Positions 3,938 through 60,475 of a DNA stretch of 60,712 bases are shown one piece after another. Numbering within the stretch: position 1 is the first letter of the stretch; every line of letters begins with the position of its first letter. The stretch is from a virus: the IMG/VR virus record IMGVR_UViG_3300045988_137581, positions 1 to 60,712 of that record; one strand, 5' to 3'. Made by a program: the position numbers and the translations under genes. The notes beneath the pieces are model-generated. The model saw only the letters and a program-made list of their open reading frames with translations. It was not told the origin of the DNA and ran no database searches.

Positions 3938-3983
3938 TCGGAGGCAGGAGCAACAGAGGGGTTCGATTCCTCTCCTCCGAGCA
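3938..3983 (+). ncRNA. tRNA-like acceptor/T-arm minihelix 2 (no D or anticodon arm)
   Basis: TCGGAGG (3938-3944) pairs 7/7 with CCTCCGA (3974-3980). T arm: AGGGG, TTCGATT, CCTCT (3957-3973). A 12-nt linker replaces the D and anticodon arms. Ends in GCA then AAA. The hairpin ACTGTC-GTGA-GACAGT (3914-3929) lies just upstream. Confidence 0.5.
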
Positions 3984-4040
3984 AAAGCCTGAGAAGCCGA
4001 GAAACGGCAGGTCCGCCAAGAACTTGTTAAAACGGTGGTT

Positions 4041-36799: not shown

Positions 36800-36804
36800 A
36801 ACAA

Positions 36805-36831
36805 AGAGGCTGAGCTGGATACTCAGCCTCT
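36805..36831. terminator. Bidirectional terminator between convergent genes
   Basis: 10-bp stem AGAGGCTGAG/CTCAGCCTCT with a 7-nt loop, flanked by A-rich and T-rich sequence. Confidence 0.75.
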
Positions 36832-36834
36832 TCT

Positions 36835-38822: not shown

Positions 38823-38865
38823 AAGGTGCTTATGAAGTAGGCAAAGATAACAACATAAGCACCTT
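38823..38865 (-). promoter_or_regulatory. 12-bp perfect hairpin between the polyvalent gene and the portal gene
   Basis: AAGGTGCTTATG-N19-CATAAGCACCTT. No U-run on either strand. Confidence 0.35.
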
Positions 38866-44800: not shown

Positions 44801-47800
44801 CTCTATGTGATGATATTCGCCATCCAAGCCCGAATATTTATGTCCCGGTTTAGGAACAAAACCACGTTCAATCGCATGTTTTGCACCGCTTGAAGCACTT
44901 ATCAATTCTCCACCATAATACTTTTCCAAGCTATCTATCAATTCATAAGCACCAAAACTGTATGACGAATACTCATTAAGCAGGTCGAATAAATCATCTG
45001 CATTTATACCGTTAAAGAATCTGTCGCCCCCTCTGAACCTGATATCGTCGGTATTTGTTGGGTTTTCAAAATCTTTTACTATCTTTGCAACAGAATCCAA
45101 ATCCAAATAGTCCACGTCAGCGAGATTGGTTCGCTGTTGGTCTATCAGGGTTTGGATTTTTTCTTTGTTCAGATATTCAGCTTTTCCTTGTACTATCCAG
45201 TTAAGCCATTTCGCATTGGTTTTAGGGAAAACGCCTCTGATACTTGAAATATCCAAACCATTTCGTTCTTGATTGAAATGTACGCCTACAAGGAATTGTT
45301 TCCCGTTGTGTTCGATACCTATGATAACATTCTTGGCATTGTCACCGTAGCGGAATACAGCCAACGGATTATTCAACTCCTTTACAAGGTCTTTGACTTC
45401 CGAAATATCAAATATGTGATTTTCCTGTGATGCCTTCTTTGAAAGTCGTGTAGAGGACAGTTCGATAGGGAGATGTGGGAAACCTGCACTTTGCAATATA
45501 AAGCCCGGCATACCTATTTGGTAAATATGTCCCTGTGGCAATGTACCGTCAATCTGTTGTTGTAGTTCTTCGTTAAACTTCTCGTTGACAGTTTCAATAG
45601 TATAATCTTCATCGCTTCTATACAGCGTATCCCCATTGTTCTCTTCCTCGTCCTCTTCCGTGCTTGTTATGCCGTCTGCCGTCTCGACGGAAGCGTCCAT
45701 ATCCGCATACTTAGCCTCCTTTTCCTCCAACTCTTTCTTCATCAATTCGGAGTACTCTTCGTATTGAGCCTGTGCCTGCTTCAATTCTTTCTCATACTCG
45801 AACGGTTTGCCCTCTCTCGAAAGCATTTGCTCCAATTCAGCCTCATTATGTCTCTTGCTTCGTTGTGCAGCTTCCAACTGTTCCGAAAAATCTTTACCCG
45901 TAAGTACGTTCGTGGTTATATCCTCCACGGCATTGCGGAGCAGGTTCTGTTTAACAGGTGTGTTCTCTATGCCGAGTTCCGGACATGAATAAGTCATCTT
46001 CCTTTCCGCCTGTGTAAACAGTGTTCTTCCCTCGCTTGCCGTCTTTCTCGACAAGTCGGTTGTAACGACAAAATCGAAATCACCTATCCTGATGGTCAGC
46101 TCTCGTCTTTGGTCTCCCGTTATCTCGCCGCTCTTTATCTTCTGCATATCGGCGAGGGCTTTCTTGTTATAGTCCTTGAAGAAGTCCTCCATTGCCTCGA
46201 CGGACGCAAAGCGTTGTTTGCCGACCGAAATCTCACCGAACCTGCCATTCTGGAACGCACTCTGCACAGCTTTCAAATAAGAACCATTGTCCTCGATACG
46301 TTGTTCCGCCTCCCTGATAAGCCCTTTCAGTTTTGGTTTCGCATTATGAATATACGTTTGGTCTGCCTCATACTGCTTCTTACGACTTGCATACTTACGC
46401 ATATTCTTCTCGGCATTGTTTTTCAGCATTGCATACTCGCTACCAGAGAGCTGGGCAATAGTATCTCCGAACACATCCTCCTCTTCTTCAAGAACACGGT
46501 TCACCATACTGTTTTCCATCATCTGCCTACCCCTCATGATGCTATCCGCAATAGCACCCTTGGTTTTTAGACGTTGGTATGCAGTAACGTCCAAACTATC
46601 CTCGACCCCGAAACGCAATACACGAACAGGCTTACCCATCTCCTTATGTATGTTGCCTTGTCGCAAAATACGACCGTTCCGCTGAGTGTAATCCATCGGA
46701 CGATTCGGAGCATCGAGATGAATCAAAGTGTGCAAGCGTTCCTGAATATTCACACCCGTACCGAGAGTAAAGGTAGAACCGAGTAAGACACGCACCTCGC
46801 CATGATTGAACTTATCAAAGATTGCAGCTTTCTTCTTGACTGTCATTCCGGACTTTATCACCACAATCTCGTCAGCCGGAACACCCTCCGCAATAAGCTT
46901 TGCACGAATATCCTCGTACAGGTTGAAGCCGCTTGCCTTGTTCTGATAGTTGTCTGCGAATATCGCAACAGTACCATTGTAGTCGGCAGTCTCTTTGAGA
47001 GAACGCAACGTTTGTCGCACAGCCTCATTCGTCTTGCTGTTCGGGTCGTCCTCTGCGTCAGCCTGCACCAATCGGGCATCGACGGCAGCAGCCTTGGCAA
47101 TACCGTACATGGTAAGCGGAATATGACTGTTCGCTTTTTTCTCTTTGCCGCTCATGTTATCGAACCTTTCGAGTTCAGACTTGACGAACTTCATTACGCT
47201 ACGCAAAGCACGTGTCTGCGGCAAATAGATGTCTTGTGCCTTTCCTCCCTCTAATTCGGGTATCTTCTCCATCACCTCCGGAGCTTCCTCCGTGAGGACG
47301 GTATCGGACACACCAGACCATATACGAACCAATTCAGGAAGATTGACATATCCTGCAAAACGGTTATTCTCCTTGAACTTGCCGCTTGTTGTGAACTCCA
47401 ACATCTGCTGAATGTTGCCGAAGTTACGGACAAAGTCGTCAAAGTAATAAATGCCGTACTCTTTCATGGTGTCGGCAGGCATAAGATAACGCATGAACGT
47501 CCAAATCTCTGCGGCAGTGTTACTGATAGGCGTACCCGTTGCGAAGACAACATTACGACCGTTATTCTTTTCCATTACCGCCTGAGCTTTCAAGAACACG
47601 CCTTGCGACTTCTTGCTGTATGACGGGTCGACACCCTTGACACCACGTTGCATGGCAGTGGCAAAACCGAGATGCTTATACTCATGAGCTTCATCGACAA
47701 GCAAGGCATCGATACCCATATCATCGAAGTTCTCCACATCATCAGTCATGCGGTCGAGCATTTCCATCGCTCTAACCTCTGCATTCTGCTTTGCTACGGC

Positions 47801-50800
47801 TCGTTTCTTCTCTTCGGCAGCAGTATTTTTCTTCACTGCAACAGAAGATAATTCCGCAAGCTCTTCCTCTAATCGCTCGACCTCTTGTTCAGCTTGTTTT
47901 ACAATCAAGCTGTCTCCGTATGGGTCTTGTTCTTTCATCTGCAAGATGGAAGTTACCTTCTCATCAATCTTCTCCTTGATGTATTGATACTGTCTGTCCT
48001 CACTATCCGGAATGCGTTCAAAGACCGATTGAGGTACAATAATCATATCCCAATCGTTGTAACGTATCTTTGCGTAGAAGTTCTTTCTACCCTCAACATT
48101 GCGGTCGTTATCTTCAAGCATCAATATCTTTGCATTAGGATAGAGTTCTTTTGCATCTGCAACGAATTGTCCGACGGTGGCATTCTGCACTACAATCATA
48201 GGCTTTCTTGCCGTACCCAAACGTCGCATTTCCATTGCAGTGGAGATTAGTGTGAACGTCTTTCCTGTTCCCACCTCGTGAGCAAGCAACACCGACTGCT
48301 GCGTTCCCCTCACTATCGCCTTGCTTTGGTGAGGACGCATCGTGTATCGTGGATTGGCTCCCGCAAAATGCTCCGGAGCAAACTCATCCGGTATGCTCAT
48401 CGGCACAAAATTGTTGAATGTATCGTTATAGACACGTTCCATCTTTGCCGACATATCGGGGTCGCTCTGCATTTTCTGTTTTGCCCAATCCTTGAAGTCC
48501 TGACGTATCTCGTCTATCTTGTTGGCACACGCCTGCGTAGCGTCCTTATCGGTAATCGTTTCAGATTTACCGTCCCAATTCTTACGAGTAGTGGAAACCG
48601 TGATGGTCTTGTTTTGAATTGCCGCTTCAATGAGTTCATGCCCCATGGTGGTACTGTTTAGCACTTTGCTCTTCACACCCATTGCACGGTTCTTCTCGTA
48701 GTCGGTGGAGGAAGGTTCTTTCATGAACCATGTACCGCCTACCAAAGTGAACTTCGCATCGACACCCGTACGCTCCTTTACATATTCATCGTACAATTCG
48801 GGGTCTATCCAAGAACTGCCGAGAGTAAAGTCTATCAAGTGTGCCGGAATATCCATCGGGATTTTCTCCTGCAATGCCTTGATGTTGCGGTCGAACTCTC
48901 CGTTCTCGTTGTTTGCCTCCGCTTGACTGAGTTTCTCACGAACATTGCCACTCAAATACTGATATGAAGCTTCTACTTTTCTTGTAACAGGGTCTTCAAA
49001 GCCGTATCCGTTTTCTATGATTTCATTCTTTACGTCATCGATGCTTCTTCCGAGACGCTCCGCAATGTATGGAACATCGACATGTCCGAATTTGAATACG
49101 CTTGCAACAATTCCTTCCTTTACATTCGTAGGATTAGGTTCTTTCACTTTCTCGACAACACGTTTGTCCATCACATCAGCCTTGCCGAATAATTTATTCA
49201 CTCCGCCTTTTCCGTCCCCCTGTTCCTTATAGGTCTCGACAGACGACACGTTGGCATAGTCCACATCATTACGAAGAAAGGCAATGGCAGTATTCTTATT
49301 GAAGTGTCCGTATGTCTCCACGAAATCATCATACGCCTTATTGAGTTTGTCTAACAACGGCTTCAACCCGTCATCGCTTTCGTTTTCGGTCTGATAGGCG
49401 AGTACATCTGCAAGTGCTTTCTTGATTGCCGAGTACGCCTCGAAGCATTCAGCCTTTGTATGTCCTTTTACCTTGTTGCTGTTCACATCGAGAAGTTGGG
49501 CATTTGATATAGAGTTAATGTACAGTTTGCCGTCCTTGACGAACATTTCGCCCACCTTTTTATCAGGAGCGACCTCGTCGTTTTTCTTTTCTTCTGTACT
49601 GCGTTCTCCAACCTCCTCTTGCGTGAATGATTTTACGAACTCCGACAACAACTCTTTCTGGTTCGTGCCTTGCTTAGGGTACAATCCCTTGCTCGTAGGA
49701 CGGTATCTGTTGCCCTCCTCGAATCCGAAACGCATTTCACCTGCCATACGTTCGGGGTGTTCCATGAAATACGTGTTGTAATCCATGGAAAGGTTCTTGA
49801 CAACAGGTTCGTATTGTCCCTTAACCTTACGTTTCTCGCCTGTGTCGTATTCCGCAACACGTTCTCCTGTTACGGTGCTTACGTCTATGGCTTGTGCTGA
49901 CTTCCGACCGTTCACACGTTTGCGGATTACAATGATGTCGGAGGTTACTCCCGTACCGCCGAATGTCTTGTTGTTCATACGGAAAGCTCCGACGAAGTCG
50001 GCTTCGCCCTCGTTTACGACCCAGTCTCGTAGTTTCCGACTGTTATCTAACGTACCGCTCGATGTGATGAAGATACCCAAACCGCCTTCTCGCAGTTTAC
50101 GTACGTTCTTTGCGATACAGAAGTCATGTATGTTATGGAATTTCTTGGATAGGTCATTGTCGCCTGTCGTGTCGTTGACTCTTAACCCCGTAACGAAAGG
50201 CACATTGGTAACAGCCAAATCGACGCTGCCGTTCGGCACACGTGTCTGCTCGAAGCCTTGTATCTCTACTTTTGCATCGGGATAGAGGAGTGAGAGTATA
50301 GCACCCGATATGCCGTCAATCTCTACTGCTTGAATATCGCTGTTGGCACTGATACTTGCAGGCATTTGCCCCAAGATGTTACCGATGCCGGCAGAACCTT
50401 CAAGTATGTTTCCGCCCTTGAAGCCCATTTGTTCGGCTATATCCCAAAGGGTATCGATAACGTATGCAGGGGTGTAGTACGCACTGTTGGCACTCATCAG
50501 TGCTTGTTGGTACTCCTCTTCGCTGAGCAGTTCACGAAGTCTCTTGTTTTCCAATGTCGGTTCATTGTAATAGGAACGACCGTTGTGTGAATAATTTGCA
50601 TGCTCATCGAAAACCTTGCCTAATCCACCCCAACCGCTGAACTTGCGAAGAACTTCCTTTTGCTCCTCGGTGGCTTCTTCGCCGCTTTCGAGCAACTGTT
50701 TCGCCAACTCGACTGCCTTGAAGTTAGCTTCTATGCGGGCATCGACAGAAGTAGGGGCGTGGTCTTTGCCACGCTCCGAATGATTGTTGCGAGAGTTCTT

Positions 50801-53800
50801 GCCCTCTAACTGCTGTAAAGGTCGTACGAAGACTCCGTCGCTCTGCGTTTTCCCCGAGCCAGCTCTTCCATTTCCGTTTTCTCCTCGTCTGTCAACTCTT
50901 CCGGTGTCTTGTTGTACTTCTTGCAGATTTCCTGTTCTGCTTCCTGCTCCGGCGTTCCTATCACTGTCGGCTGACAATCCTTTGGAGCGTAACGCAGCAT
51001 CATCTCTTTGTAATCCATCTTTGTTATTTTTTATTGAACCATCAGACAAGCTCAATTCGCCTGTCTGCTGCAAAGGTAGAGATTTTTCCTTTGACTGCTT
51101 TTCTCCCGATTTTGTTTTGTTCTCAACAGGCTTGATATCACTCCATTCAACCGTTTCATATAGGATAGGAGCAAGCCCTGTATCGAGAATAGGATTATGG
51201 TCTCCGTAGTCTTCAAAATCGTAGATGGTTGCTTCGACAGTCTTTTTATTTCTGCCTTGCGGAGTAAACAAGACTTTATCGCCACGCTTGAAACCATTAT
51301 AACCCTCATTGGCTTTTCTCTCGCTGTTACGTTGGCTTATGATTTCCTGCTTTGCCTGTTCGGCTTCTTCTTGGTGGGCTTGTTCGGCAACGACAACCTC
51401 CGCCGTAGTCATCGGTTCGTTGTGTTCCTTACCGAATGTGGCTATATCGAACTCTTGCACCTCGTTGTATGGTGTCAAATCGGTTGCAAAATCGCTGCTT
51501 TCCACCTCGGGCAAATCTCTCGCTCCATTGTAGAACGCTTTGAGGTACGGACGCACCACATCTCCCAAATCTGCAATCATGGCTGTTGCGTAATCGGCAA
51601 ACTTGCGTGAACCTTTCTCCAAATGATACACTGCCATCTCGATACCGATTGAAAGGATTTCGGGGTCTATGCCCACATTCAAGTTGTTCAATTTCTTACG
51701 CAAACGCTCACGCAGTTCTGCATAACGCTCATCGGTAACGAGCTTGTTGCCGCTCGGATTGCTTTTCGGTTTCTTCTTTTGCTTGGATAGACGTTCCCTC
51801 TCCACTTCGGCGGCAATACGCTCCGCCTGTGAGAATATATCGTCTTCCTTCGCTGTTTTCGCTTCTTGTTCTTCTATAAGTGCTTTTAGTATCGCAGCCT
51901 CGTTTTCCGACAACATAATCTTGTCGTTCTCGTATGCGTTCCATGCCCCGACAAATCCGCCATACATATCCGACACGGTTTCGATTAAATCTCGCTCCGC
52001 TCTGGTGCTTCCGTAGAGTTGCTTACCTATCTTCCATTTGACATCGCGGCTGTCGGCTCTGTTCCTTGCGTTAGCCTTGAACTTTTCAGGTTTTCCTGTC
52101 TTCTCCCATTTTTCACCTTTCAGAATTCTAACCTCCGACTGTCCAGCTTCTTTTGTTTGTTGTTCTGCTGTTTCTGTCTGTCGGGTTTCGGTAACCTTAT
52201 TGATGTCCGCAAGTGAAACAGGCTGAGCGTCTGCCACTGCTTCTTTATTGCCGACGACTGTTTCTGCCAACTGCCTCGCACTCTCTTCGCTACGCATCAT
52301 GAAGCCGCCCTGCTTTGCATCGTACCAACCTCGCTCGGCTTTGGCAAGTTCTTTTGCAGCTCTGTACTGCTCCTTGCTCAATGTATCCGCAAATTTCACA
52401 AGGTGCATATCAAGAACCTTGCCTCTTTTGGTGGTATATTGTGCCGGTTCTATGGTGTAAGTTGCAGGATTATTTGCAACAGTCTCTTTTTTTACTTTTT
52501 TGTATTCAGAAAACTCCTTTGTCTTGCGATTGCTGCTGTCTATCCACTTCTCGAACTCTTCGAGAGAAGCCTGCGTTATACGCAACGTGTGTTTGTCTGC
52601 CCAACCGTTTTCATAGTTGCTAAGGTATGCTTTATAAGCTTCATTGATGTCGTTGAAGCCAAGCATAACCTTATGTTCATCAAAACTGCCGTCCTCATTG
52701 TACTGGTCAACGACAAAGACCTTTTGTCCGTCCCAATTGTCTATATCATCCGACAAGAATACATCTATATGGTCTCCGTCCACACTCTCCGTCCCACGAA
52801 TATAGCCGTAGGTGTTGTTCATCTTCGTTTCCCATGTCCTACCGTTGGCATCTACACCTCTGCGTACAGAGCCTTTCGGTTGCTCAATGCTTATGTCGAA
52901 CTTGCCAATCCGAACATGTCCTTTCTTGTAGTTGCCTGCTTCTTTCTGCTTTTCGGTGGGGTCGGTATCGACTTCTGCCTCTGCTTGTGCGATTTTTTCG
53001 CCTAATTCATCGCCATTTCCTGTTTTTGTCGTACCTTTGTCGTCGGATAATTCCTGACCAGTCGGATATTGAACGAAATTGGGTCGTTCCAGAAGTGACG
53101 ATTGTTCAGGAGTTATTTTTTTACTCCTGTATATCACCTCTTCATTCTTTGATAGATTTGCATTATTCCTACGTCCAAAAACAGTAGAAATAGCATTTAC
53201 TTCTATTTCACGACCAGCGTTTTTTACATCAACTCCAACAACGACATACTCGCTGTTTTCGGTTTCAAGTGTAGTATAAATACGATAGGAATCCTCTCTA
53301 TCTGTAATTCTGGAAACGGCAAACGGATTTTGAAGAGCTTGGGGGAGTTGCTCCCAAACCTGTTCGGAAAGCGAATGAGAATTATCCTTACTAATATGTC
53401 GTGCAATAACTCCATATTTGATAGTAAATTTATCGCCACGCAATCCAAGTTCTTGCATAAACCTTGGAGTTTGTGCAATATCAAAAAAAGACCGCTGGAA
53501 TAATTTTGAAGCGACCTCTTTACCTTTTGAATATAGAGTTCGTACTACATCAAGAAAAGATTGTGATTCGACTACTTCTCCATTGCCTTGGCTATCTCCG
53601 CCAACTCTTCCTCCACTGTCGGTTTGTGGTTCAGTACCCTTACTATGTTCTCTTCCTCCAACGTCTCCATTGCTTCCTCGTCGCCCTCTTTCGCTCTTCT
53701 GAGTATCGATACCCACACCATTATTTCCAGCTTGTCCATTCCTATTTTCATTGTAGTCTATATTTAATACTTCTTTGATAGCCTGAGCAAGTGTTCTCGG

Positions 53801-56800
53801 CGTATTGTCGGGTGTCCCGAACAAATCCCCCTTCCTCGTCCCTTGAATCAGGTCGTACATGTCGGTGAACGAATCCTGAACGAACTTTTGGGTACGCCCC
53901 TTGTACATCGCCGCAAGAACGAGTGCAAAGTTACTGAATTTCTCCGCAGGGAGGTAACTTTCTCCCGTGGCATCGTCGTATTGATACTGCTTAGCCCAAT
54001 TTTCAACCGCTTTTCTTGCTGCCTCATAGTTTCTTGCATTGGCGAACTCATCATACTGCATTAAAGCATGGAATGCACGGACGGAGTTCTGTATCTCCGT
54101 CATCATACGCTCGCTTTCCGGGCTTGCATTATCCCTGTATGCAGTAGCGAGGATAGCTTTTTGAGCTTTTGCAGGCATGGCATTGAACATTTCTTCGAGA
54201 CGACTGTTTCCATTTTGGAAAATGTGGCTGACAACAATACCTCTCAAATCATTCTTCGCCTCCGCAGTGAGATTACCCTTGGAATCGAATGCACTCTTAT
54301 ATTGAGTGTCGGTGATATACCCTTTACGATTCAAGTAAGCCAACACCTCCGCTCCGTTCTTGTCTATAAGTTCTGCCAAAGACAAATCCTCCTCATTGGA
54401 AGCAAACAACGTGTTGAAGAACGTTCCTATATCCGTACCCATCTTCTGCACGGTGTTCTTCGGCTTAATCCTCTCTACGCCTCCGCTCTCCGTATCCTTT
54501 GCCTCGTACTGACCGAGATTGACTGCTTCCTCATCGCTCACATCGACCATATTGACAAGCACAGGATTTTTCATTGCTTCTATTTCCGCCCTGTCGAGAC
54601 CCAATCTCTCGGCATTGTCGAGAAGATACTGTTTGTATTTCTCGGCTTGGTCTTTGTGCTGTGCATACATCGCTTTCAATGCACCGCTTCGGTTATTGCC
54701 CTGTATGACCTCACCACGAGCATTGACGGTCGGAGCTCCGGTATAAGCCGTTACAGAGGAAGTAATTTCCTCCGGTCTTATATGTGCAGCCATACGGTTT
54801 AGTGCAGCTCTGCTTGCATTATCCACTCTCTCTTTCGGTTGTGCTTCGTCGATGAAGTGTACGGGGTTTCTTTGACCTCCTTGGTGGCTTGGTTGCAATT
54901 CGTCGGCTTCTATAAGCACGGCTCTACCTTTCACCGTCTTATCGTTGGAGAACTTCACCTCCACCTCTCTACCGGTTGAATGGGCGACAGGTTCTTGACG
55001 CTCCACCTTATGACCGTTCACACGCCTGTAACCTCTTGCCCGTGCCTCCTGCGGAGTGTCGTCTATCACATCGGGAACACCGTTAAGCGTACCATCGGCA
55101 ACAACCTCGGGTGCAACCGCAGCCTGACGAGAACCCATTGCCTGTGCAGCTTGTCTTATTTTGCCTGCCTCCACGATAGCTTGCCAAGCCTCGACATCTT
55201 TCTTTGCCTGTTCGATGGCAGCCATACGTTCTTTCTCCGCCGCAATCTTCTCCGCAACGGTTTCCCCGCCTTTCGACTTCGCTTTCTCTACCGCTTTCAA
55301 TGCCTTCACCTTATCGGCAAGCATACTCTCGGCAACGGACATGGCAACCTCGACATTACCCTCGCACTGCTCTGTGATGGCATCGAAAGCAACAGCAGGT
55401 TCTCCCTGCTCATATATAGGATTGCCATCGATATCATGAGGCAACATGCTGACGGCACTGTGCTGTTCGGTTTGTGCAATTTCCTCGTTTGACCCATTGC
55501 CGTTTTCCTGCTCGGATAAAGGAGCTGCAAACAGTCCGCCGTCTGCATCTTTCGCACTCTGCTGCGGTTCTCGTCTTTCCAACTCCCTGCCGTTATGACT
55601 GACAGCCATAGAGGCAAGCTCTTCGGGGGTAATGGCAATAGTGTATTTCCCATTGATGGGTTTGTCCAAATCGATGATTAACGTATCATCTTCCGGTATG
55701 TAATCCTGCACCACGCCATTGATGGACACTCCATCGACCTCCAAAACCACTTCATCATCGACCCTATAATTCTCTGCTACTTCTACATCTTCTAATGGCA
55801 TTGCGGAAGTTTCCGCTTCGTCCTGCTTCTGCAATTCTGCATACTTCGCCCGCACCTTTGCCTTTCTCGCTTCATCGACATTCGCCTGCAACTCTTCAAG
55901 AGACGCAAACGGAACGACTTCACCCGTTGCAGTCTTAATGATATAACTACCATCTTCATGCTGCATTTGTCCGTCTTCCGTCGACTGCAACTCTGCCTCC
56001 ATCAGTTCGCCGGTAGTCGGAGAAACAAACGGATACATCACACCGCTTACAGGCTCGACCTTCCCATCGAAATCCCTCTGCCTGTCCATCATGCTCTGTT
56101 GCTCGGTTAAAGAAAGTTCAAGGTCGATAAGCGGCTCGACCCCCTGCACATCATCAAGCAAAAGCAACTCCTTCGGCGAAATCTGCGAACGATTACCCTC
56201 CTCATCTGCAACTATGATGGAATCATCGGAGTTGGAAACATCGACACCTGTACTATCGCTATATGATGCAACCACATTGCCACTTATTATATATACACGC
56301 TTACCACCGATGGTTGTCGCAGCGTGAACCATTCCGTCACCCGTGTGAGTAATACTTCCATACTTCGCCCTAACCATTTCCTCGGTGAAAGACGCAGTAT
56401 CCTTATACTTCTGTTCCACACCGTTATACGACTGCTTTGCAGTCAGGTAATCCATTGCAGCGGTACGTGCGTCGCCGCTGTACGAGTTCGCAATTCCGAT
56501 AGCAGTGGCAACATCTGCATTATCCAATCTATCGAAATCATCGCCCAACACATTTCTCGCACGCTCCGCAAAGAACTGCAACTCCGCCTGTATATCCGCC
56601 TTGTCTGTACCCTGTGCATTATAACCACGAGAAAAGCTTGTATTCAATTTTGCAAGCTCTGAACTCTGTTCCTCACCCGTTCTTGCGGCAGAAAGGTTGA
56701 AGCCTCGCAACGTCATGGACTTGGTGATATAGTCAGCCGCAGCCATCTTTTCACGCTCATTCATCGTACCATCATTCGCAATGGCATTGAACAAAGCACC

Positions 56801-58720
56801 CATATCTTCGTTGGTGGTGTTGTCGATAGTGTTCTTTATGCCTTGCCACTCCTGCTGTCCGAATACCTCGCCGCATCTTGCATCAGCTTTATTGACATCA
56901 TGATTGTACTTCGCATAACTCGCAGCTGTCAATCCGCCTTTCGCCGCACCCATCACACCCATAGATAGAGCCATGCCGACAAGTATATCCTTATTAAAGT
57001 CCTTGGTGAACAAAAGATTAACCCTCTTACCGTCGGCATCTACGGTATAAGCGTCATCGAGATTGAACGCTGTACGGAGTAATTGACCTGCATACTCTTC
57101 TCCGACCTCTCCGAAATAGTCGCTGATACCCATCTGCTCGAATACCTTGCCTACGCCTCCGTATAGGTTCTTAACGCTCTGCATCTTGCCTGTCGATAGC
57201 ACAGACGTGAGCCACTTGGGCGAGAAAACCTTGCTCAACTTATCACCGATTACCCTCTCGATGCCCCCGAAGTGACCTCCTAACATCTCGGAATACACCT
57301 CGATAAGATTGCTCATGCCTGCTTGCCATGCAGCCTCACCTATATCCTTGCCTTTCGCAATCTTGAATCTGCCATCTCCCGTTTGCGTAACCCCACCTGT
57401 CATTCTGCCCAACGCATCGGCAGCAACGCTACCTGCACCAAGAGTTGCATTGGTGATTGCAGCCTTACCTATATCGTCGGCAACTATGCCAAGATTTTTG
57501 ACAAGCACATTGCCCGCACCTTTGACACCGTTCGCCTTGATGTACTTCCTGACACCTTGCTCGCCAATCTCTTTAATCGTCTGCTTGCCGACAATCTTCG
57601 CCGCGCCTTTGCTGCCGGCAGAGAATAGAGACCCCGGCGACAAGCCAATTTCCAACATGAATGGAAACATCTCTCCCGTCATGTTCCCGTACTTATACCA
57701 ACTGCTGTAATTCTGACCGTAGAGATTATCGAAGTTCCTCCTCGTTGCCATTGCGTTAACGAACTCTTGCTCCGCATCACTCTCCGCAACTCCCTTATTC
57801 TTGCTCGCAATATCGTATGCTGTTATACCCTTGTTGATGTCCTCATACGACATCGTAAGGAATGACTTCATGCCATCGGAAAGCCCGTCCCATATACCTT
57901 TCCAGAAGCCCGGGCTTGTGTTGCCCCGAGTATCCTCGACAGTCTTGATTGCATTATTCAGTTCGCTGATGGCAGCCATGTAAGCATTCGCTTCCTTGTC
58001 TTGTCCGAGAACATCCTCCGGAAAGAACGAACCGTGCTGTTCTGCACGATTCAAGCTCTCGACCCAACGCACGAATGGAGATTTCTCCTCTCTATCCTTA
58101 TTATATTGTTCCCTTACCGCAGTTTCCCGTTCATTCAGTTTGCGTACAAGCCTGTCTCGCTGCATCTTCAACTGAACAATAGACAGTTCGGAATTATCAT
58201 ATTGCGACACTGCCTCTGCAACCTCCTTATTGCGACCACGTTGTGCGGTAAAGCCTAATTGCCCGTACACAGAGGGGTCATCACGTTGTGCTGCAAAGCC
58301 TAGTTGTCCGTACGTAGAGGGGTCTTTACCCAGACTTGCTGCCTCAGGATTAAACGAGTATCCCATCTCCGTAATTCGATTGCCTGCGTTGTGCAATTCA
58401 TCCGCAGCTTTCGCTATGTCTCTCTGTTGCCCGAACAACTGCGGTCGTCGCTTTGCAAAAGCCTTGCTGTAATCATCGGCAAGACTGCGTTCGTAGCTCT
58501 CATAATCTCCAAGGTCAAACTCTCCTGCTTGCGAAATAGCATCATATACTTTCTTCCTATTATCGGGAGAACCGAGTTTATCAACGAACTCAGCTTCATC
58601 TTTTACTCCTAACTCATCAGGAGTATATCCGAAATCTGTAAGATTTTTATATAGACTTTTAGCAACTCCGTATTCCTCGGCTTGCTCGTGTGCTTTTCTC
58701 TTTTCTGGGTTATCTTGCAT
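38882..58720 (-). CDS. giant multidomain polyvalent virion protein (6612 aa): ParB-like, pyrophosphatase-like, N6-adenine methyltransferase, SNF2/DEAH helicase, duplicated nuclease-like modules, metallopeptidase motifs, Gly-rich and TM segments
   Basis: Uninterrupted 19,839-nt ORF in the standard code. The motifs read by eye are listed in the findings. Confidence 0.9.
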   Translation of the reverse strand: MQDNPEKRKAHEQAEEYGVAKSLYKNLTDFGYTPDELGVKDEAEFVDKLGSPDNRKKVYDAISQAGEFDLGDYESYERSLADDYSKAFAKRRPQLFGQQRDIAKAADELHNAGNRITEMGYSFNPEAASLGKDPSTYGQLGFAAQRDDPSVYGQLGFTAQRGRNKEVAEAVSQYDNSELSIVQLKMQRDRLVRKLNERETAVREQYNKDREEKSPFVRWVESLNRAEQHGSFFPEDVLGQDKEANAYMAAISELNNAIKTVEDTRGNTSPGFWKGIWDGLSDGMKSFLTMSYEDINKGITAYDIASKNKGVAESDAEQEFVNAMATRRNFDNLYGQNYSSWYKYGNMTGEMFPFMLEIGLSPGSLFSAGSKGAAKIVGKQTIKEIGEQGVRKYIKANGVKGAGNVLVKNLGIVADDIGKAAITNATLGAGSVAADALGRMTGGVTQTGDGRFKIAKGKDIGEAAWQAGMSNLIEVYSEMLGGHFGGIERVIGDKLSKVFSPKWLTSVLSTGKMQSVKNLYGGVGKVFEQMGISDYFGEVGEEYAGQLLRTAFNLDDAYTVDADGKRVNLLFTKDFNKDILVGMALSMGVMGAAKGGLTAASYAKYNHDVNKADARCGEVFGQQEWQGIKNTIDNTTNEDMGALFNAIANDGTMNEREKMAAADYITKSMTLRGFNLSAARTGEEQSSELAKLNTSFSRGYNAQGTDKADIQAELQFFAERARNVLGDDFDRLDNADVATAIGIANSYSGDARTAAMDYLTAKQSYNGVEQKYKDTASFTEEMVRAKYGSITHTGDGMVHAATTIGGKRVYIISGNVVASYSDSTGVDVSNSDDSIIVADEEGNRSQISPKELLLLDDVQGVEPLIDLELSLTEQQSMMDRQRDFDGKVEPVSGVMYPFVSPTTGELMEAELQSTEDGQMQHEDGSYIIKTATGEVVPFASLEELQANVDEARKAKVRAKYAELQKQDEAETSAMPLEDVEVAENYRVDDEVVLEVDGVSINGVVQDYIPEDDTLIIDLDKPINGKYTIAITPEELASMAVSHNGRELERREPQQSAKDADGGLFAAPLSEQENGNGSNEEIAQTEQHSAVSMLPHDIDGNPIYEQGEPAVAFDAITEQCEGNVEVAMSVAESMLADKVKALKAVEKAKSKGGETVAEKIAAEKERMAAIEQAKKDVEAWQAIVEAGKIRQAAQAMGSRQAAVAPEVVADGTLNGVPDVIDDTPQEARARGYRRVNGHKVERQEPVAHSTGREVEVKFSNDKTVKGRAVLIEADELQPSHQGGQRNPVHFIDEAQPKERVDNASRAALNRMAAHIRPEEITSSVTAYTGAPTVNARGEVIQGNNRSGALKAMYAQHKDQAEKYKQYLLDNAERLGLDRAEIEAMKNPVLVNMVDVSDEEAVNLGQYEAKDTESGGVERIKPKNTVQKMGTDIGTFFNTLFASNEEDLSLAELIDKNGAEVLAYLNRKGYITDTQYKSAFDSKGNLTAEAKNDLRGIVVSHIFQNGNSRLEEMFNAMPAKAQKAILATAYRDNASPESERMMTEIQNSVRAFHALMQYDEFANARNYEAARKAVENWAKQYQYDDATGESYLPAEKFSNFALVLAAMYKGRTQKFVQDSFTDMYDLIQGTRKGDLFGTPDNTPRTLAQAIKEVLNIDYNENRNGQAGNNGVGIDTQKSERGRRGSNGDVGGREHSKGTEPQTDSGGRVGGDSQGNGEVVESQSFLDVVRTLYSKGKEVASKLFQRSFFDIAQTPRFMQELGLRGDKFTIKYGVIARHISKDNSHSLSEQVWEQLPQALQNPFAVSRITDREDSYRIYTTLETENSEYVVVGVDVKNAGREIEVNAISTVFGRRNNANLSKNEEVIYRSKKITPEQSSLLERPNFVQYPTGQELSDDKGTTKTGNGDELGEKIAQAEAEVDTDPTEKQKEAGNYKKGHVRIGKFDISIEQPKGSVRRGVDANGRTWETKMNNTYGYIRGTESVDGDHIDVFLSDDIDNWDGQKVFVVDQYNEDGSFDEHKVMLGFNDINEAYKAYLSNYENGWADKHTLRITQASLEEFEKWIDSSNRKTKEFSEYKKVKKETVANNPATYTIEPAQYTTKRGKVLDMHLVKFADTLSKEQYRAAKELAKAERGWYDAKQGGFMMRSEESARQLAETVVGNKEAVADAQPVSLADINKVTETRQTETAEQQTKEAGQSEVRILKGEKWEKTGKPEKFKANARNRADSRDVKWKIGKQLYGSTRAERDLIETVSDMYGGFVGAWNAYENDKIMLSENEAAILKALIEEQEAKTAKEDDIFSQAERIAAEVERERLSKQKKKPKSNPSGNKLVTDERYAELRERLRKKLNNLNVGIDPEILSIGIEMAVYHLEKGSRKFADYATAMIADLGDVVRPYLKAFYNGARDLPEVESSDFATDLTPYNEVQEFDIATFGKEHNEPMTTAEVVVAEQAHQEEAEQAKQEIISQRNSERKANEGYNGFKRGDKVLFTPQGRNKKTVEATIYDFEDYGDHNPILDTGLAPILYETVEWSDIKPVENKTKSGEKQSKEKSLPLQQTGELSLSDGSIKNNKDGLQRDDAALRSKGLSADSDRNAGAGSRTGNLQEVQQDTGRVDRRGENGNGRAGSGKTQSDGVFVRPLQQLEGKNSRNNHSERGKDHAPTSVDARIEANFKAVELAKQLLESGEEATEEQKEVLRKFSGWGGLGKVFDEHANYSHNGRSYYNEPTLENKRLRELLSEEEYQQALMSANSAYYTPAYVIDTLWDIAEQMGFKGGNILEGSAGIGNILGQMPASISANSDIQAVEIDGISGAILSLLYPDAKVEIQGFEQTRVPNGSVDLAVTNVPFVTGLRVNDTTGDNDLSKKFHNIHDFCIAKNVRKLREGGLGIFITSSGTLDNSRKLRDWVVNEGEADFVGAFRMNNKTFGGTGVTSDIIVIRKRVNGRKSAQAIDVSTVTGERVAEYDTGEKRKVKGQYEPVVKNLSMDYNTYFMEHPERMAGEMRFGFEEGNRYRPTSKGLYPKQGTNQKELLSEFVKSFTQEEVGERSTEEKKNDEVAPDKKVGEMFVKDGKLYINSISNAQLLDVNSNKVKGHTKAECFEAYSAIKKALADVLAYQTENESDDGLKPLLDKLNKAYDDFVETYGHFNKNTAIAFLRNDVDYANVSSVETYKEQGDGKGGVNKLFGKADVMDKRVVEKVKEPNPTNVKEGIVASVFKFGHVDVPYIAERLGRSIDDVKNEIIENGYGFEDPVTRKVEASYQYLSGNVREKLSQAEANNENGEFDRNIKALQEKIPMDIPAHLIDFTLGSSWIDPELYDEYVKERTGVDAKFTLVGGTWFMKEPSSTDYEKNRAMGVKSKVLNSTTMGHELIEAAIQNKTITVSTTRKNWDGKSETITDKDATQACANKIDEIRQDFKDWAKQKMQSDPDMSAKMERVYNDTFNNFVPMSIPDEFAPEHFAGANPRYTMRPHQSKAIVRGTQQSVLLAHEVGTGKTFTLISTAMEMRRLGTARKPMIVVQNATVGQFVADAKELYPNAKILMLEDNDRNVEGRKNFYAKIRYNDWDMIIVPQSVFERIPDSEDRQYQYIKEKIDEKVTSILQMKEQDPYGDSLIVKQAEQEVERLEEELAELSSVAVKKNTAAEEKKRAVAKQNAEVRAMEMLDRMTDDVENFDDMGIDALLVDEAHEYKHLGFATAMQRGVKGVDPSYSKKSQGVFLKAQAVMEKNNGRNVVFATGTPISNTAAEIWTFMRYLMPADTMKEYGIYYFDDFVRNFGNIQQMLEFTTSGKFKENNRFAGYVNLPELVRIWSGVSDTVLTEEAPEVMEKIPELEGGKAQDIYLPQTRALRSVMKFVKSELERFDNMSGKEKKANSHIPLTMYGIAKAAAVDARLVQADAEDDPNSKTNEAVRQTLRSLKETADYNGTVAIFADNYQNKASGFNLYEDIRAKLIAEGVPADEIVVIKSGMTVKKKAAIFDKFNHGEVRVLLGSTFTLGTGVNIQERLHTLIHLDAPNRPMDYTQRNGRILRQGNIHKEMGKPVRVLRFGVEDSLDVTAYQRLKTKGAIADSIMRGRQMMENSMVNRVLEEEEDVFGDTIAQLSGSEYAMLKNNAEKNMRKYASRKKQYEADQTYIHNAKPKLKGLIREAEQRIEDNGSYLKAVQSAFQNGRFGEISVGKQRFASVEAMEDFFKDYNKKALADMQKIKSGEITGDQRRELTIRIGDFDFVVTTDLSRKTASEGRTLFTQAERKMTYSCPELGIENTPVKQNLLRNAVEDITTNVLTGKDFSEQLEAAQRSKRHNEAELEQMLSREGKPFEYEKELKQAQAQYEEYSELMKKELEEKEAKYADMDASVETADGITSTEEDEEENNGDTLYRSDEDYTIETVNEKFNEELQQQIDGTLPQGHIYQIGMPGFILQSAGFPHLPIELSSTRLSKKASQENHIFDISEVKDLVKELNNPLAVFRYGDNAKNVIIGIEHNGKQFLVGVHFNQERNGLDISSIRGVFPKTNAKWLNWIVQGKAEYLNKEKIQTLIDQQRTNLADVDYLDLDSVAKIVKDFENPTNTDDIRFRGGDRFFNGINADDLFDLLNEYSSYSFGAYELIDSLEKYYGGELISASSGAKHAIERGFVPKPGHKYSGLDGEYHHIEFQDENGDTFVEAVPFIEAKNVESDLGIKFGKEDKNRVPLTKEEKVLRDAVIDRIRRSGIEVIDDPAVGQRVLDMANGNAKEQAKKKRALETASLRATPRSLTVISSADGAKILQNIEELANELTESVSQPKTFVGKVAQALGATRDGSKSEYATFETKNGKVVTIRLADHNAKVSNFDRRNELSGISIVVSPKVNTGMTNDGDAHIVEYYYDAIKLRKAEGKPLAEIVRSIQQALYSGEFKDTTGLAERQEVNADNLREHRVYHGSGAEFEAFDHSYMGEGEGQQAYGWGTYVTEVEGIGEYYAKTSFLIAEEKRRSSRKATPVSMAVGAIIHQENYNLQAVSFEQRKEAAIADLETNIKINENILRNEKEDETMTALRKAAIERNKAALDALRAMREEQYNEERSRQGRIRHLYTVEIPEDNGNNYLEWNEPLPKDFDMGAVGEFIMREKRIDDETENEMLEKDLSDSLDEVYNGRTLYRTISLYIGEKEASELLASLGYVGIKYPADNLRGGRADGAKNYVVFNERDLQIVDHVRFFKGANGEAYGFTVDGKIYIDTRIANTETPIHEYAHLWAEALRNGNAKEWNNVVGLMKGTSVWEEVTKRYPELKSDDEIAEEVIALYSGRRGAERLREETRKATEGENSVFEKAEAVNALQRVKRALEKFWKGIADFLHIHYTSATEVADRVMRDLLNEVNPINTDISARDGVASYTDDELSFENDPWSKLAGRPLRTQFQRKEFARKERRRMVDRVNELAEKLHLGNVEIVTDADALEGKKKRAKGFYSKSTGKITIVIPNHTSTFDAEQTLLHEAVAHYGLRQLFGEHFDTFLDNVFTNADMQVREQIVALATRNGWDFRTATEEYLASLAENTNFENLNAGWWSKIKQLFMDLLHKIGFDGFGGVALSDNELRYILWRSYQNLVSPGKYKSILGEAEDIAKQYDLKVGDYAETKEFSDKAAEKEDELMFRDIDPDNEFVVKDRAYAAHIYNQRVKGGMYQFKEAMQDSMLGLKELMGSVYEANGKKDFNIADVPTFENAYTGENALSSINEKEVEAFNRTFFQPLNVVISKLATTADERDELIEYMMAKHGLERNVYMAERDAKSKLEKSGKSEEELEKMIEKNRQRDYAGLTALTGIEDVAEAELEAERMVAEYESMHETEPIWDLLKEINDAILSKSLECGLISKETYEAISSMYNYYIPLRGFDEKTADEEYAYLNERHGTFNAPIKKANGRRSKADNPLAYLQSMAESTIMQGNRNRFVKNRFLTFVLNHPSDAYSISDLWLQYDDVAGEWKPLLPTLNESDTPEEVERKLAEFNDKLMQLAEEEPEKYKRGREADNIPYRVVNNSDLHQHQVIVKRRGKNVVITINGNPRAAQALNGLTNPDNNDMRGSIGSIISLVGDVNRTLSALYTTLQPDFIASNFLRDLIYSNSMAFVKEGADYWRRFALNYFVNAWSLKGLFAKYRKGTLDTNNRVEAMFKQFLDNGGETGYRRMLDVEEHKKEIEKALKTLNKKMPFEEWRKHFANWLDEIGRSVETKARFAAFMTSRSLGRDIGRSIFDAKEISVNFNKKGAGDRFLKSQGQTLLGKSGAFVSGAGRTLFIFWNAAIQGTFGNFGKALSQHPGRSLSVASALFVLGMFIQKLVSDGDDGDDDKRGSYYDLPETIRRNNFVFPGPGKSWIKVPLPIEYQAIYGMGELLGGKMFHNEPLSVAEFASQISKLTPIDIMEGQTNNKDGLDLLAPFTPSAIKPMLEVQKNRSWYGLPIYKDTPFNKNMPEWTKAYKNANTKIVDLCAYLNEMSGGTRYEKGKVDLNPAEIEYLLRSYGGGFWTLPNQLVKLYEAGVGKDFDWRNIPLVNRFVTNGDERTKNRALNNEFFQLEEEYKETMRLIKAYEKDKAQGDKKAVKRLQEIKKSKEYAHLAAFDDKNLYSKIKKSKKMLKEATTKEEEDKLKKELNELKKQVVKKVRLIDAL

Positions 58721-58731
58721 AATTCCAAAGT

Positions 58732-59589
58732 TTACATGTTTATCTGCACTCGCTTCGTTCTCTTTTTAGGCTTTTGTTCTTGCGGTGTCCTCGCATAGCC
58801 TCCCGATGAGACACGCTGTTTTGTTCCTTCCTCGTCGAGCTTATATCCGGTGGAAGAGCTGTATTCCCACGTACCATGTTGCTTTGCGAACTGCTCTTGT
58901 GCAGCCTTGAAGGTAAAGTAATGAGGATTATCGTTCTCGTCGTAAGCTACATATTCTGCACGTTTTCCACCACTTCCGCTTCCGCCACTGCCTTTTTTCT
59001 CCGCCACTTCTTTCTTCGTAGCGTTATTCATTCCCGCAATCTCTTTTTTTGCTTCCCTATCTTTATCTTTTTCTTCCGCTTTCCGTCTTGCTTCCTTGTC
59101 CCTCCGCAGAGCGTCTAAGTATGTCTTATAGTTAGACCGAATATTGATATTATCTCTATTGTCTGCAGCGGCTTGTAAAGCAAGTAACCTCGCATAGCTG
59201 TTGTAGTAATCCTTTTTATTGGCGTCGAACTCACCCAGCAACTTATCATATCTTGCATTGGTGCGAGCTGTACTCGACTTGTTTCCATCGTAAGTGGGAG
59301 GAGCGTACTGCGTAGTGAAGTAGAGAGACGACAAGGCTGACACCCCGTCACCTATTGCGGAAAACAACTTATCACGTTTCTTTTTTCTCTCGATTTTGCG
59401 TCTCTCTTCGTCCGAGTAGTCGGCTTCTTTGGATTTAAGCTTCTCTATAAGGCTATCGTACCCCGTAGAAGTCTTCTTTATTTGCGGAGGTGCAGGCATC
59501 GCCTGCTCTTTCTCTCCGCTCGTATTCCCTTGCTGTTCTTTCTCTCCGCTGCTCGTCCCTTGCTGCTCTTTCTTCTCTTCTTCCGTCAT
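58732..59589 (-). CDS. basic low-complexity virion or ejection protein candidate (285 aa)
   Basis: N-terminal tandem SGEKEQQG repeats, K/E/R-rich sequence and a GSGGSGSGG linker. Lies 11 nt upstream of the giant ORF. Confidence 0.55.
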   Translation of the reverse strand: MTEEEKKEQQGTSSGEKEQQGNTSGEKEQAMPAPPQIKKTSTGYDSLIEKLKSKEADYSDEERRKIERKKKRDKLFSAIGDGVSALSSLYFTTQYAPPTYDGNKSSTARTNARYDKLLGEFDANKKDYYNSYARLLALQAAADNRDNINIRSNYKTYLDALRRDKEARRKAEEKDKDREAKKEIAGMNNATKKEVAEKKGSGGSGSGGKRAEYVAYDENDNPHYFTFKAAQEQFAKQHGTWEYSSSTGYKLDEEGTKQRVSSGGYARTPQEQKPKKRTKRVQINM

Positions 59590-59592
59590 ACT

Positions 59593-60072
59593 CTAAAAAT
59601 CAATTTGGCTTGCCGCATTAGCTGTGTCTTTTGCCGCTTGTGCTATTGCCGCAGCACGTTTTTCCTCTATCTGATTGAGCTGTTCTTGGTACTTATCGTC
59701 GTTATCCATGTACGCAGCTTCAATTCCCTCTTTTCTCTTCTCCGCATCCAAAGCTGCATTACTCATCATCGTCGCAACAGCATCGTTCGCTCCTGCTTTT
59801 TCCGCTGCCAAAGCCTCGTTGCTTCCTCCCGTTACGACTTGTGCCGCAGCAGCATTCTTCGCTCTGTTCTTCAACAATTCCTGCGTCTTCGTCAGAATGT
59901 TTTGGAAATCTGCTCTCTGTGTAGCGTCTTCGTTGTATCTCCTGTTGTACCAAGCCTCATTCTTCGCTCGCTGTTGTTCAATTCCTTTCTTTGCTTCTTT
60001 CGCCGCTTTTGATGCTTGATAGCCTCCAAAGATGGATGCTGCTGCACCTAATGCATTACCAATTATTCCCAT
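59593..60072 (-). CDS. Gly/Ala-rich coiled-coil protein resembling DNA-pilot or ejection proteins (159 aa from ATG 60072; track ORF extends to 60153)
   Basis: MGIIGNALGAAASIFGGYQASKAAKEAKK, followed by an Ala-rich helix. A TATTTTTG box at 60091-60098 lies inside the longer ORF, which favours the internal start. Confidence 0.55.
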   Translation of the reverse strand: MGIIGNALGAAASIFGGYQASKAAKEAKKGIEQQRAKNEAWYNRRYNEDATQRADFQNILTKTQELLKNRAKNAAAAQVVTGGSNEALAAEKAGANDAVATMMSNAALDAEKRKEGIEAAYMDNDDKYQEQLNQIEEKRAAAIAQAAKDTANAASQIDF

Positions 60073-60090
60073 AACAATATATATTATTGC

Positions 60091-60098
60091 CAAAAATA
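60091..60098 (-). promoter_or_regulatory. -7 box TATTTTTG (minus strand) for the ejection-protein/polyvalent/portal operon
   Basis: CAAAAATA on the + strand, 19 nt upstream of ATG 60072. Confidence 0.45.
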
Positions 60099-60184
60099 AG
60101 GAGAAGCAAAAAGAACTAAGGGTTATCTTTATCCTTTCCCGCAAAACACACATGATTTCGGGATAATTAGTCCCTAAAAATCAG

Positions 60185-60192
60185 TAACTTTG
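60185..60192 (+). promoter_or_regulatory. -7 box TAACTTTG for the XRE gene and early block
   Basis: Matches TAnnTTTG 53 nt upstream of ATG 60245. Confidence 0.5.
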
Positions 60193-60244: not shown

Positions 60245-60475
60245 ATGAAAAGCGATAAGAGAATTTACGATGAACTCGGAAAACGACTGAAAGCACGTCG
60301 AATCGAATTAGGGCTGACTCAAACAGAAGTAGGTGAACGAATTGGCGTGAATTACACCATGATTTTGATGTGGGAGAAAGGCAAAAAAGGCATGTCCGTA
60401 AGGACGCTGTCCGCCCTCTGCGATGCCTTGGAACTAAGATTAGAACTCGTCAAGATTTTCCATTTCAAGCACTAA
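60245..60475 (+). CDS. XRE/Cro-family helix-turn-helix regulator (76 aa), paralog of 1118..1348
   Basis: LGLTQTEVGERIGVNYTMILMWEKGKKGMSVRTLSALCDALE. Confidence 0.75.
   Translation: MKSDKRIYDELGKRLKARRIELGLTQTEVGERIGVNYTMILMWEKGKKGMSVRTLSALCDALELRLELVKIFHFKH

Follow-up and report, generated by a model that had tools for sequence, protein, structure and literature searches.

A podophage ejection-protein cassette has been defined as a gp14-like gene beside gp15 and, after these, a larger gp16, the gp14 and gp16 homologues having membrane elements (PMC8954989). In the N4-like phages (Schitoviridae), the ejection operon encodes gp73/gp52 (~154 amino acids [aa], a membrane protein), gp72/gp51 (~570 aa), and gp71/gp50, the virion RNA polymerase of ~3400 to 3500 aa (PMC11445570). 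Large polyvalent proteins were predicted in 2017 to be packaged and injected (PMC5512222). For Burkholderia phage JC1, gp67 (196 aa), gp68 (510 aa), and the giant gp69 (4515 aa) were all found in cesium chloride-purified virions (PMC9144972). The phi24B gp47 protein (LPD5, LPD1, LPD38, and MuF-C domains) is abundant in virions and invisible in cryo-electron microscopy maps, and the authors of that preprint propose that it is an encapsidated ejection protein (bioRxiv 10.64898/2026.04.10.717836). Here, we analyze three genes on the minus strand (positions 60072 to 38882) of IMG/VR virus record IMGVR_UViG_3300045988_137581, the whole 60,712-nucleotide (nt) stretch of which we call the window. We consider it probable that these genes form an internal-virion (ejection) protein cassette, the third member of which is a single protein of 6612 aa. 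Four independent lines support this reading: a T7_gp14 family match of the small protein, a conserved gene order, homologues that are present in virions, and a suppression of cysteine.

Open reading frame (ORF) calling gave a small gene (59593 to 60072, 159 aa, from the ATG at 60072, or 59593 to 60153, 186 aa, from the ATG at 60153), a middle gene (58732 to 59589, 285 aa), a giant gene (38882 to 58720, 6612 aa, 741.7 kDa, isoelectric point [pI] 5.3, 32.7% of the genome), and a portal gene of the P22 type (36835 to 38805, 656 aa; Pfam P22_portal, E = 5e-38; phrog_156, E = 1e-97), all on the minus strand. The small-middle, middle-giant, and giant-portal spacings are 3, 11, and 76 nt. The order on the minus strand is a TATTTTTG box, the small protein, the middle protein, the giant, a hairpin, and the portal. 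This is the layout that a sequence-only reading of the window had described, and the ORF coordinates, the P22_portal match, and the hairpin fold confirm it. The three cassette genes are adjacent and co-oriented and run small, middle, larger, which is the order and orientation given for cassettes in PMC8954989.

The small protein is 24% Ala and 6% Gly and has a Gly/Ala-rich N terminus, MGIIGNALGAAASIFGG, with a moderate hydropathy calculated by hand (~0.95 over 19 aa). We found 1201 homologues, and nearly all of the 120 listed are 159 aa long and start with MG(I/L)IG, showing that the 159-aa form is real. The sequence-only reading had given a size of 159 to 186 aa; the Gly/Ala-rich 159-aa form stands, and the 186-aa form arises only from a nonconserved upstream ATG. 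We rejected this longer form because its start is not conserved, the homologues begin at the 159-aa ATG, and the extension contains a promoter-type box. Among relatives at 58% identity, nearly all have a precomputed assignment to T7_gp14 (PF24072), and matches to this model were obtained for 10 of 14 close and 29 of 89 diverse members of the family, which comprises 1263 clusters at 50% identity. The protein P0041, found on 868 contigs, scored 29.2 bits, above the curated cutoff of 27, in an end-to-end alignment of residues 2 to 155 with profile positions 5 to 163; T7 gp14 itself scores 160 bits. The small protein therefore probably belongs to the T7 gp14 family, an assignment that has the Pfam model as its single source. 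An AlphaFold2 (AF2) model (predicted local distance difference test score [pLDDT], 73) is a helical hairpin with helices at residues 3 to 81 and 85 to 155, and a Foldseek search with this hairpin returned generic coiled coils only. At 159 aa, the protein compares with ~181 to 240 aa for the gp14-like first protein in PMC8954989. We also noted a 564-aa protein (P0300) whose first ~160 residues match the small-protein family, possibly a fusion of the small and middle proteins.

The gene order is conserved. A small gene (159 to 171 aa), a middle gene (345 to 433 aa), and a giant gene (>2400 aa or open-ended) follow one another in 69 of 72 parsed related IMG/VR loci. The cultured phages BKO1-TP3 and BF1-TP2 also have this order. 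The synteny comparison proposed with the sequence-only reading agrees with that reading. The position of the middle gene between the other two is almost invariant across loci. The giants of proteobacterial phages are also preceded by several small proteins.

Cysteine is nearly absent from the three cassette proteins, with 0 of 159 residues in the small protein, 0 of 285 in the middle protein, and 8 of 6612 in the giant (0, 0, and 0.12%) versus 170 of 11631 (1.46%) in the 38 remaining ORFs (binomial P = 1e-31). No such depletion is seen in the portal (1.22%), the capsid protein (1.67%), or a 2647-aa ORF (1.47%). Across 43 distinct IMG/VR loci, the counts were 0/6928 for small, 1/16453 for middle, and 79/124669 for giant proteins, and the proteobacterial giants have no cysteine in 2783 to 4650 aa. 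T7 gp15 and gp16 also have none. Cysteine is likewise suppressed in all three proteins of the N4-like gp73-gp72-gp71 operon, which has been ascribed to passage through the periplasm (PMC11445570). Our counts extend this signature to the whole class, with all enzyme domains included, and a near-absence of cysteine might serve as a cheap sequence-only screen for ejected proteins in uncultured podophages.

By its predicted domains, the giant belongs to the large polyvalent proteins as described by Iyer et al. (PMC5512222): a single chain combines enzymatic domains of several unrelated kinds, including ones typical of that class, and the gene sits among virion genes with a portal-terminase packaging system. 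From the N terminus, we identified a ddrB-type ParB domain (aa 1259 to 1391, positions 54548 to 54946; PF18763, E = 3e-26), a first MuF-C (PBECR) domain (aa 1777 to 1867, 53120 to 53392; PF18819, E = 2.6e-11), an InPase domain (aa 1923 to 2060, 52541 to 52954; PF18823, E = 3e-53), a DarB-type adenine methylase and SNF2 helicase dyad (aa ~2650 to 4022, 46655 to 50773; phrog_10089 and phrog_11801, Pfam SNF2-rel_dom, ResIII, and Helicase_C), and a second MuF-C domain (aa 4428 to 4523, 45152 to 45439; PF18819, E = 7e-18). These are followed by an ART-PolyVal match (aa 4901 to 4945) and a zincin motif, HEYAH (aa 5209 to 5213), both weak (43082 to 44020). The suggestion that the giant is an enzyme is supported by this array of ParB-like, MuF-C, InPase, methylase-helicase, ART-like, and zincin domains. 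A PHROG match named endolysin was set aside because it covers the InPase domain only, and a phmmer search of the N-terminal 1250 aa against the Protein Data Bank (PDB) returned nothing.

The part of the giant that is conserved across phyla is its C terminus. We compared the window giant with BKO1-TP3 gp55, BF1-TP2 gp68, JC1 gp69, DC1 gp67, Stx phage 86 gp35, and Vibrio 1.205.O gene 20, and aa ~5640 to 6525 are the only part common to all seven; the enzyme arrays differ. The module (aa 5640 to 6612, ~970 aa, positions 38885 to 41803) contains LPD38 (PF18857) at aa 6299 to 6496 (114.5 bits versus a cutoff of 27). Ralstonia GP4 and Vibrio phage giants share it along with those of Burkholderia JC1 and DC1 and Stx phage 86, and identity with the proteobacterial giants within the module is only 22 to 25%. 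An AF2 model of aa 5640 to 6612 (pLDDT, 74; predicted template modeling score, 0.67) matches 73 BFVD models, mostly as the last segment of polyvalent proteins with other effectors, such as lytic transglycosylase, RelA/SpoT, or methylase domains. One of these matches is a free-standing 955-aa LPD38 protein, and in one contig (L009) the module is a separate 1098-aa ORF adjoining the portal gene. That ORF is preceded by a D12 methylase gene, an AAA ATPase gene, and a strong hairpin (L009, 1 to 7710). Another apparent free-standing module (L008, 9700 to 10100) was rejected since the split just before the module is a frameshift. A phmmer search of the module against the PDB found nothing.

Hydrophobic stretches had been reported near both ends of the giant. 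We located the four strings at aa 351, 579, 6242, and 6268, but only aa 579 to 597 and 6268 to 6286 have a mean Kyte-Doolittle hydropathy as high as 1.4 across 19 aa. The N-terminal Gly-rich segment, ILVGMALSMGVMGAAKGGL (aa 579 to 597, 56930 to 56986), lies inside a weak LPD14 match (E = 0.005). N-terminal segments of this kind are kept only within the Bacteroides clade, and the core GMALSMGVMGA is identical in BKO1-TP3 gp55. The helix at aa 6268 to 6286 (39863 to 39919) is followed by the acidic run GDDGDDD; helix and run occupy the same alignment position in all seven giants, across phyla, and in four of the six homologous giants this is the only strongly hydrophobic segment.

The middle protein fits its earlier description as a basic, low-complexity protein (pI 9.3, 20% lysine plus arginine). 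Only 31 homologues were found, 20 of which share just a short core. The alignment starts with a variable P/Q/T-rich N terminus and a conserved basic stretch, then FSAIGDGVSALSNLYFTTQYAP, and continues with a charged helical region that differs in length among the homologues; a GSGGSG linker then leads to a small C-terminal domain, and the protein ends in a basic tail. The conserved core consists of the basic stretch and FSAIGDGVSALSSLYFTTQYAP (aa ~62 to 100). No family in Pfam, PHROG, or NCBIfam names this protein, and NCBIfam gave no useful match for any cassette protein or for the proteobacterial neighbors.

We propose that the three proteins would be packed in the head during assembly and expelled via the tail ahead of or with the DNA. 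The small protein would act as a T7 gp14-family core protein, its Gly/Ala-rich N terminus and long helical hairpin being suited, to judge from the family, to outer-membrane insertion. The middle protein, a fast-evolving second component with one conserved amphipathic segment and a charged helical stretch, may be a periplasmic or bridging partner, a role suggested by its position only. The giant would fill the gp16 position. Its cysteine-poor C-terminal ~970-aa LPD38 module would be the chassis by which it enters the head and enters or crosses the envelope, and the N-terminal 5600 aa would be a swappable effector array acting on the incoming DNA and on host targets, likely for restriction protection and host takeover. 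The giant may itself be part of the conduit or channel, as the conserved helix, the gp14-family neighbor, the lytic transglycosylase in some homologues, and the analogy to T7 gp16 and the N4 polymerase suggest.

Functionally, the N4-like ejection operon, in which an enzyme is the giant third protein, comes closest as a precedent. Both units combine a small protein (a membrane protein in the N4-like phages and a putative one in the window), a middle protein that is strongly divergent, and a giant enzyme whose best-conserved part is C terminal; in phage DEV, that part binds the middle protein (PMC11445570). However, no sequence similarity was detected, the DEV gene order on the strand is reversed (giant first), and the N4-like payload is an RNA polymerase, whereas that of the window is a multieffector array in a protein about twice as long. 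The window phage is also temperate, with a Bacteroides host. By descent, the window giant is closest to giants of the LPD38 type in Stx, Burkholderia, Ralstonia, and Vibrio podophages, a set that includes phi24B gp47 and Stx phage 86 gp35, Bcep22 gp75, JC1 gp69, and DC1 gp67, and the "DarB-like" protein of Ralstonia GP4. They share with the window giant a homologous C-terminal module of ~900 aa, with the same hydrophobic helix and acidic run, variable effector domains N terminal to it, and at least two small cysteine-free proteins encoded just upstream; virion association is established for JC1 and phi24B. Unlike in that set, the window giant has no lytic transglycosylase and has extra ParB, InPase, and MuF-C domains, and the upstream small proteins are not detectably homologous, none of those scanned matching T7_gp14.

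The template for gene order is T7 gp14-gp15-gp16, with which the cassette shares the order small, middle, large, tight spacing, the Pfam grouping of the small protein's family with gp14, and candidate membrane-type segments in proteins one and three; in T7 gp16, too, there is a single hydrophobic segment close to the C terminus. The middle and giant proteins lack detectable homology to gp15 and gp16, and at 285 and 6612 aa they fall outside the known ranges of 431 to 982 and 609 to 1337 aa, the giant being five times the longest listed gp16. Furthermore, the window cassette has no hydrolase domain, and its portal is of the P22 type and not the T7 type. The comparison with podophage ejection-protein cassettes drawn by the sequence-only reading is supported by the order, the probable gp14 family, the homologues in virions, and the cysteine counts; for the middle and giant proteins, no resemblance in sequence or fold to T7 gp15 and gp16 or to P22 gp20 and gp16 was detected. 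The P22 set gp7-gp20-gp16 shares the P22-type portal and the temperate podophage lifestyle, but no cassette protein matches Pfam P22_gp7 or Inj_translocase. The P1 Dar proteins DarB and DdrB share the methylase-helicase dyad and the ParB domain, respectively, and are head-internal proteins that protect incoming DNA (PMC5512222). P1, however, is a myovirus whose proteins are separate and which needs no tail-extending conduit, whereas in the window a single chain unites these domains with an LPD38 module, and a gp14-family gene lies beside it.

Several results weigh against an ejection cassette. The 186-aa reading of the small protein scored 24.7 bits (E = 2.4e-5) on T7_gp14, below the cutoff, and the 159-aa form gave no match at E = 0.01. 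Profiles built from 14 and 89 family members retrieved no T7 gp14 chain among all PDB sequences, even at E = 10, and hhalign of the family with T7 gp14 gave a probability of 0.15 to 0.3. For the middle protein, hhalign with T7 gp15 gave a probability of 0.04 (no similarity), and at 285 aa (345 to 441 aa in relatives) it is shorter than any of the gp15-like proteins, described as all-helical tube formers, in PMC8954989. The C-terminal module showed no similarity to T7 gp15 or gp16 by hhalign, and Foldseek of its model against the PDB gave a best E value of 0.31, with the T7 core at 5.9. Hidden Markov models of the small and middle families had no significant match among the proteins upstream of the JC1, DC1, Stx phage 86, and Vibrio giants, nor in P22 gp7, gp14, gp16, and gp20. 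The Pfam P22_gp7 and Inj_translocase (gp20) models, on which P22's own proteins score 405 to 428 bits, matched none of the three cassette proteins, and neither Pfam nor a relaxed Pfam scan of the giant found a peptidoglycan hydrolase domain in the cassette. Virion presence is known from papers on JC1 and phi24B, for homologues of the giant and for proteins at equivalent positions, and would apply here by analogy.

Part of this evidence would also suit a cassette that is cargo only, in which the three proteins enter the head and are delivered as the P1 Dar proteins are, while none of them builds the conduit, which would come from elsewhere in the virion, such as parts of the 2647-aa ORF. The ddrB-type ParB domain and the DarB-type methylase-helicase in the giant, the lack of a fold or sequence link to gp15 and gp16, the absence of a hydrolase from the cassette, and the availability of the unannotated 2647-aa ORF as a conduit candidate all favor this explanation. 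However, the small protein's family is the T7 gp14 pore/core family, the hydrophobic helix is conserved in a module shared across phyla, and some homologous giants carry a lytic transglycosylase (DC1 annotation; BFVD LT_GEWL matches), as T7 gp16 does. The 2647-aa ORF, for its part, has normal cysteine and in relatives resembles a surface protein targeted by a diversity-generating retroelement (DGR). We regard pure cargo as unlikely, yet as the strongest competitor of the ejection reading.

The P1 Dar system loads its proteins into heads by an ordered pathway, and the small and middle proteins could be assembly factors or chaperones, like P1 Hdf and DarA, that load the giant into procapsids and are not ejected themselves. 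Their tight linkage to the giant (69 of 72 loci) and the mostly low-complexity middle protein with one short conserved motif are compatible with such a role. We nevertheless think it improbable, since both proteins are near cysteine free across the 43 loci, which fits passage through the periplasm, JC1 gp67 and gp68 at the same positions were found in mature virions, and the small protein's family is assigned to gp14. The same cysteine suppression, confined to the cassette, and the homologues in virions of two phage groups leave very little probability for an intracellular antidefense or early-function operon that merely adjoins the portal gene and the lysogeny region. Such an operon would account for the start of the cassette at a divergent promoter region shared with a helix-turn-helix (HTH) regulator gene and for the ~2.5 kb between cassette and integrase in the related contig L010, and the enzyme domains could act inside the producing cell too. 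But in P22 and Stx phages, too, the ejection genes or the giant lie at the end of the prophage, by the immunity or int genes.

Within the ejection reading, we tentatively suggest, with rather more doubt than confidence, that the LPD38 module represents a distinct, structurally unsolved class of ejectosome subunit that docks near the portal, inserts its helix in the inner membrane, and threads the fused effectors into the cell and that is paired in Bacteroidota with a gp14-family pore protein. If true, this would join the literature on polyvalent proteins and that on ejectosomes in one mechanism and would explain the oversized (T=9) heads of such ~60-kb podophages. Ralstonia GP4 (PMC9698820) and phi24B (bioRxiv 10.64898/2026.04.10.717836) both have LPD38-type giants, ~60-kb genomes, and T=9 capsids, which would leave room for a large protein load.

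The ejection reading is not new in kind. The general idea of head-packed polyvalent proteins and of a gp16 position filled by a giant enzyme has already been published, Pfam already files relatives of the small protein with gp14, and the phi24B homologue was called an ejection protein in a 2026 preprint, so the gain is incremental. Besides the wider cysteine signature, our analysis adds three points: an LPD38 giant and a gp14-family gene are paired throughout a clade of gut Bacteroides prophages; the C-terminal module is delimited as the conserved, putative chassis; and the portal junction has a conserved hairpin with a probable promoter. Prophages of this clade are very common in human-gut Bacteroides, with single protein variants on about 900 to 1000 contigs. 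If the cassette is ejection machinery, large polyvalent proteins become linked to the ejectosome, one-third of a genome would be devoted to a single delivered protein, and the cultured relatives BKO1-TP3 and BF1-TP2 could be used for experiments.

The hairpin between the giant and portal genes (38823 to 38865, minus strand) has a 12-bp stem and a 19-nt loop (ΔG = −24.1 kcal/mol; z = −2.9), and the loop holds TATCTTTG, a match to the Bacteroides −7 promoter consensus (38842 to 38849, minus strand). We collected ~100 nt before the portal start from 80 IMG/VR relatives (L093 to L172) and BKO1-TP3, which gave 47 distinct regions, and 43 of these contain an inverted repeat of 7 to 16 bp enclosing TAnnTTTG, with stem sequences that vary by lineage. 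The TAnnTTTG motif is invariant in a 25-sequence alignment. RNAalifold found no consensus pairs on this alignment because the stems are shifted between lineages, and in its place we used a per-sequence inverted-repeat search and a count for the named structure. A 13-pair helix was 72% paired versus 63% in shuffles, a level reached by 0 of 500 shuffles; two-sided changes occurred in 11 pairs (1 of 500 shuffles), and the correct register was best.

On the simplest reading of these data, the hairpin is where the cassette transcript ends or undergoes processing, and transcription of the portal gene then starts from its own promoter in the loop, which makes the portal gene a neighbor of the operon and not a member of it. 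The sequence-only reading had the operon run on to the portal; the two do adjoin, but with a probable promoter of its own for the portal gene, they would not be one transcription unit. The hairpin data would fit a palindromic operator over the portal promoter equally well. In BF1-TP2, the portal gene is not adjacent to the cassette. A perfect 11-bp-stem palindrome with the look of a terminator lies just past the portal stop codon (36804 to 36832), where the portal gene converges with a plus-strand gene (36338 to 36799). It is probably a bidirectional terminator, and it marks the end of the minus-strand block.

At the other end of the cassette, the TATTTTTG box is a candidate Bacteroides −7 promoter element (60091 to 60098, minus strand), 18 nt upstream of the ATG at 60072. 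The box falls within the 186-aa reading of the small ORF, and with the 159-aa form as the real product, it is correctly placed for such an element. However, TAnnTTTG occurs 56 times in the window versus 50 expected, so the box alone is weak evidence, and there is no such box at the corresponding place in BKO1-TP3 or BF1-TP2. Within the window, the hairpin loop offers the one strong example of a −7 motif enclosed by an inverted repeat. Divergent from the cassette, across a 172-nt intergenic region, is an XRE-type HTH gene (60245 to 60475, plus strand) with its own TAACTTTG box at 60185 to 60192. In L010, two HTH genes and an integrase gene are found on the far side of this region.

The closest cultured relatives are BKO1-TP3, BS-TP4, and BF1-TP2, temperate Bacteroides phages isolated from sewage (PMC12694917). 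A blastn search of the cassette region against 50,697 phage records gave no match. The metagenomic contig L010 encodes a small protein 95% identical to that of the window, and there the genes from the start of the window (SMC-like, RecT, and metallo-beta-lactamase fold) lie upstream of the cassette, past the HTH gene and an integrase gene. A middle protein identical to that of the window is also found on a 60,732-bp contig. Together, these two contigs indicate that the window is approximately one complete, circularly permuted genome, that is, essentially the whole ~60.7-kb genome of a temperate Bacteroides podophage. Terminase (phrog_2) and capsid protein genes lie nearby, within 10 kb; the capsid protein is presumably of the SU10 type, as encoded by the relatives (SU10_MCP), and the terminase of the relatives is assigned by synteny.

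Just upstream of the proteobacterial giants, we observed a Gly-zipper protein of 77 to 83 aa without cysteine, namely, Stx phage 86 gp33 (L005, 4752 to 5003) and Vibrio 1.205.O gene 18 (L006, 3606 to 3839), the latter with a weak match to the C terminus of Pfam P22_gp7. The phi24B preprint reports a "bacteriocin homologue" in virions and dismisses it as a contaminant (bioRxiv 10.64898/2026.04.10.717836); this protein may be the Gly-zipper protein and a true ejection protein. The second very long ORF of the window (20149 to 28092, minus strand, 2647 aa) has no Pfam match and, in PHROG, only the unnamed phrog_14959. No reverse transcriptase gene was seen beside it in the window, but its homologue in BKO1-TP3, gp44, does adjoin one, and DGR targets of ~2000 aa have been reported for phages of the BKO1-TP3 group (PMC12694917).

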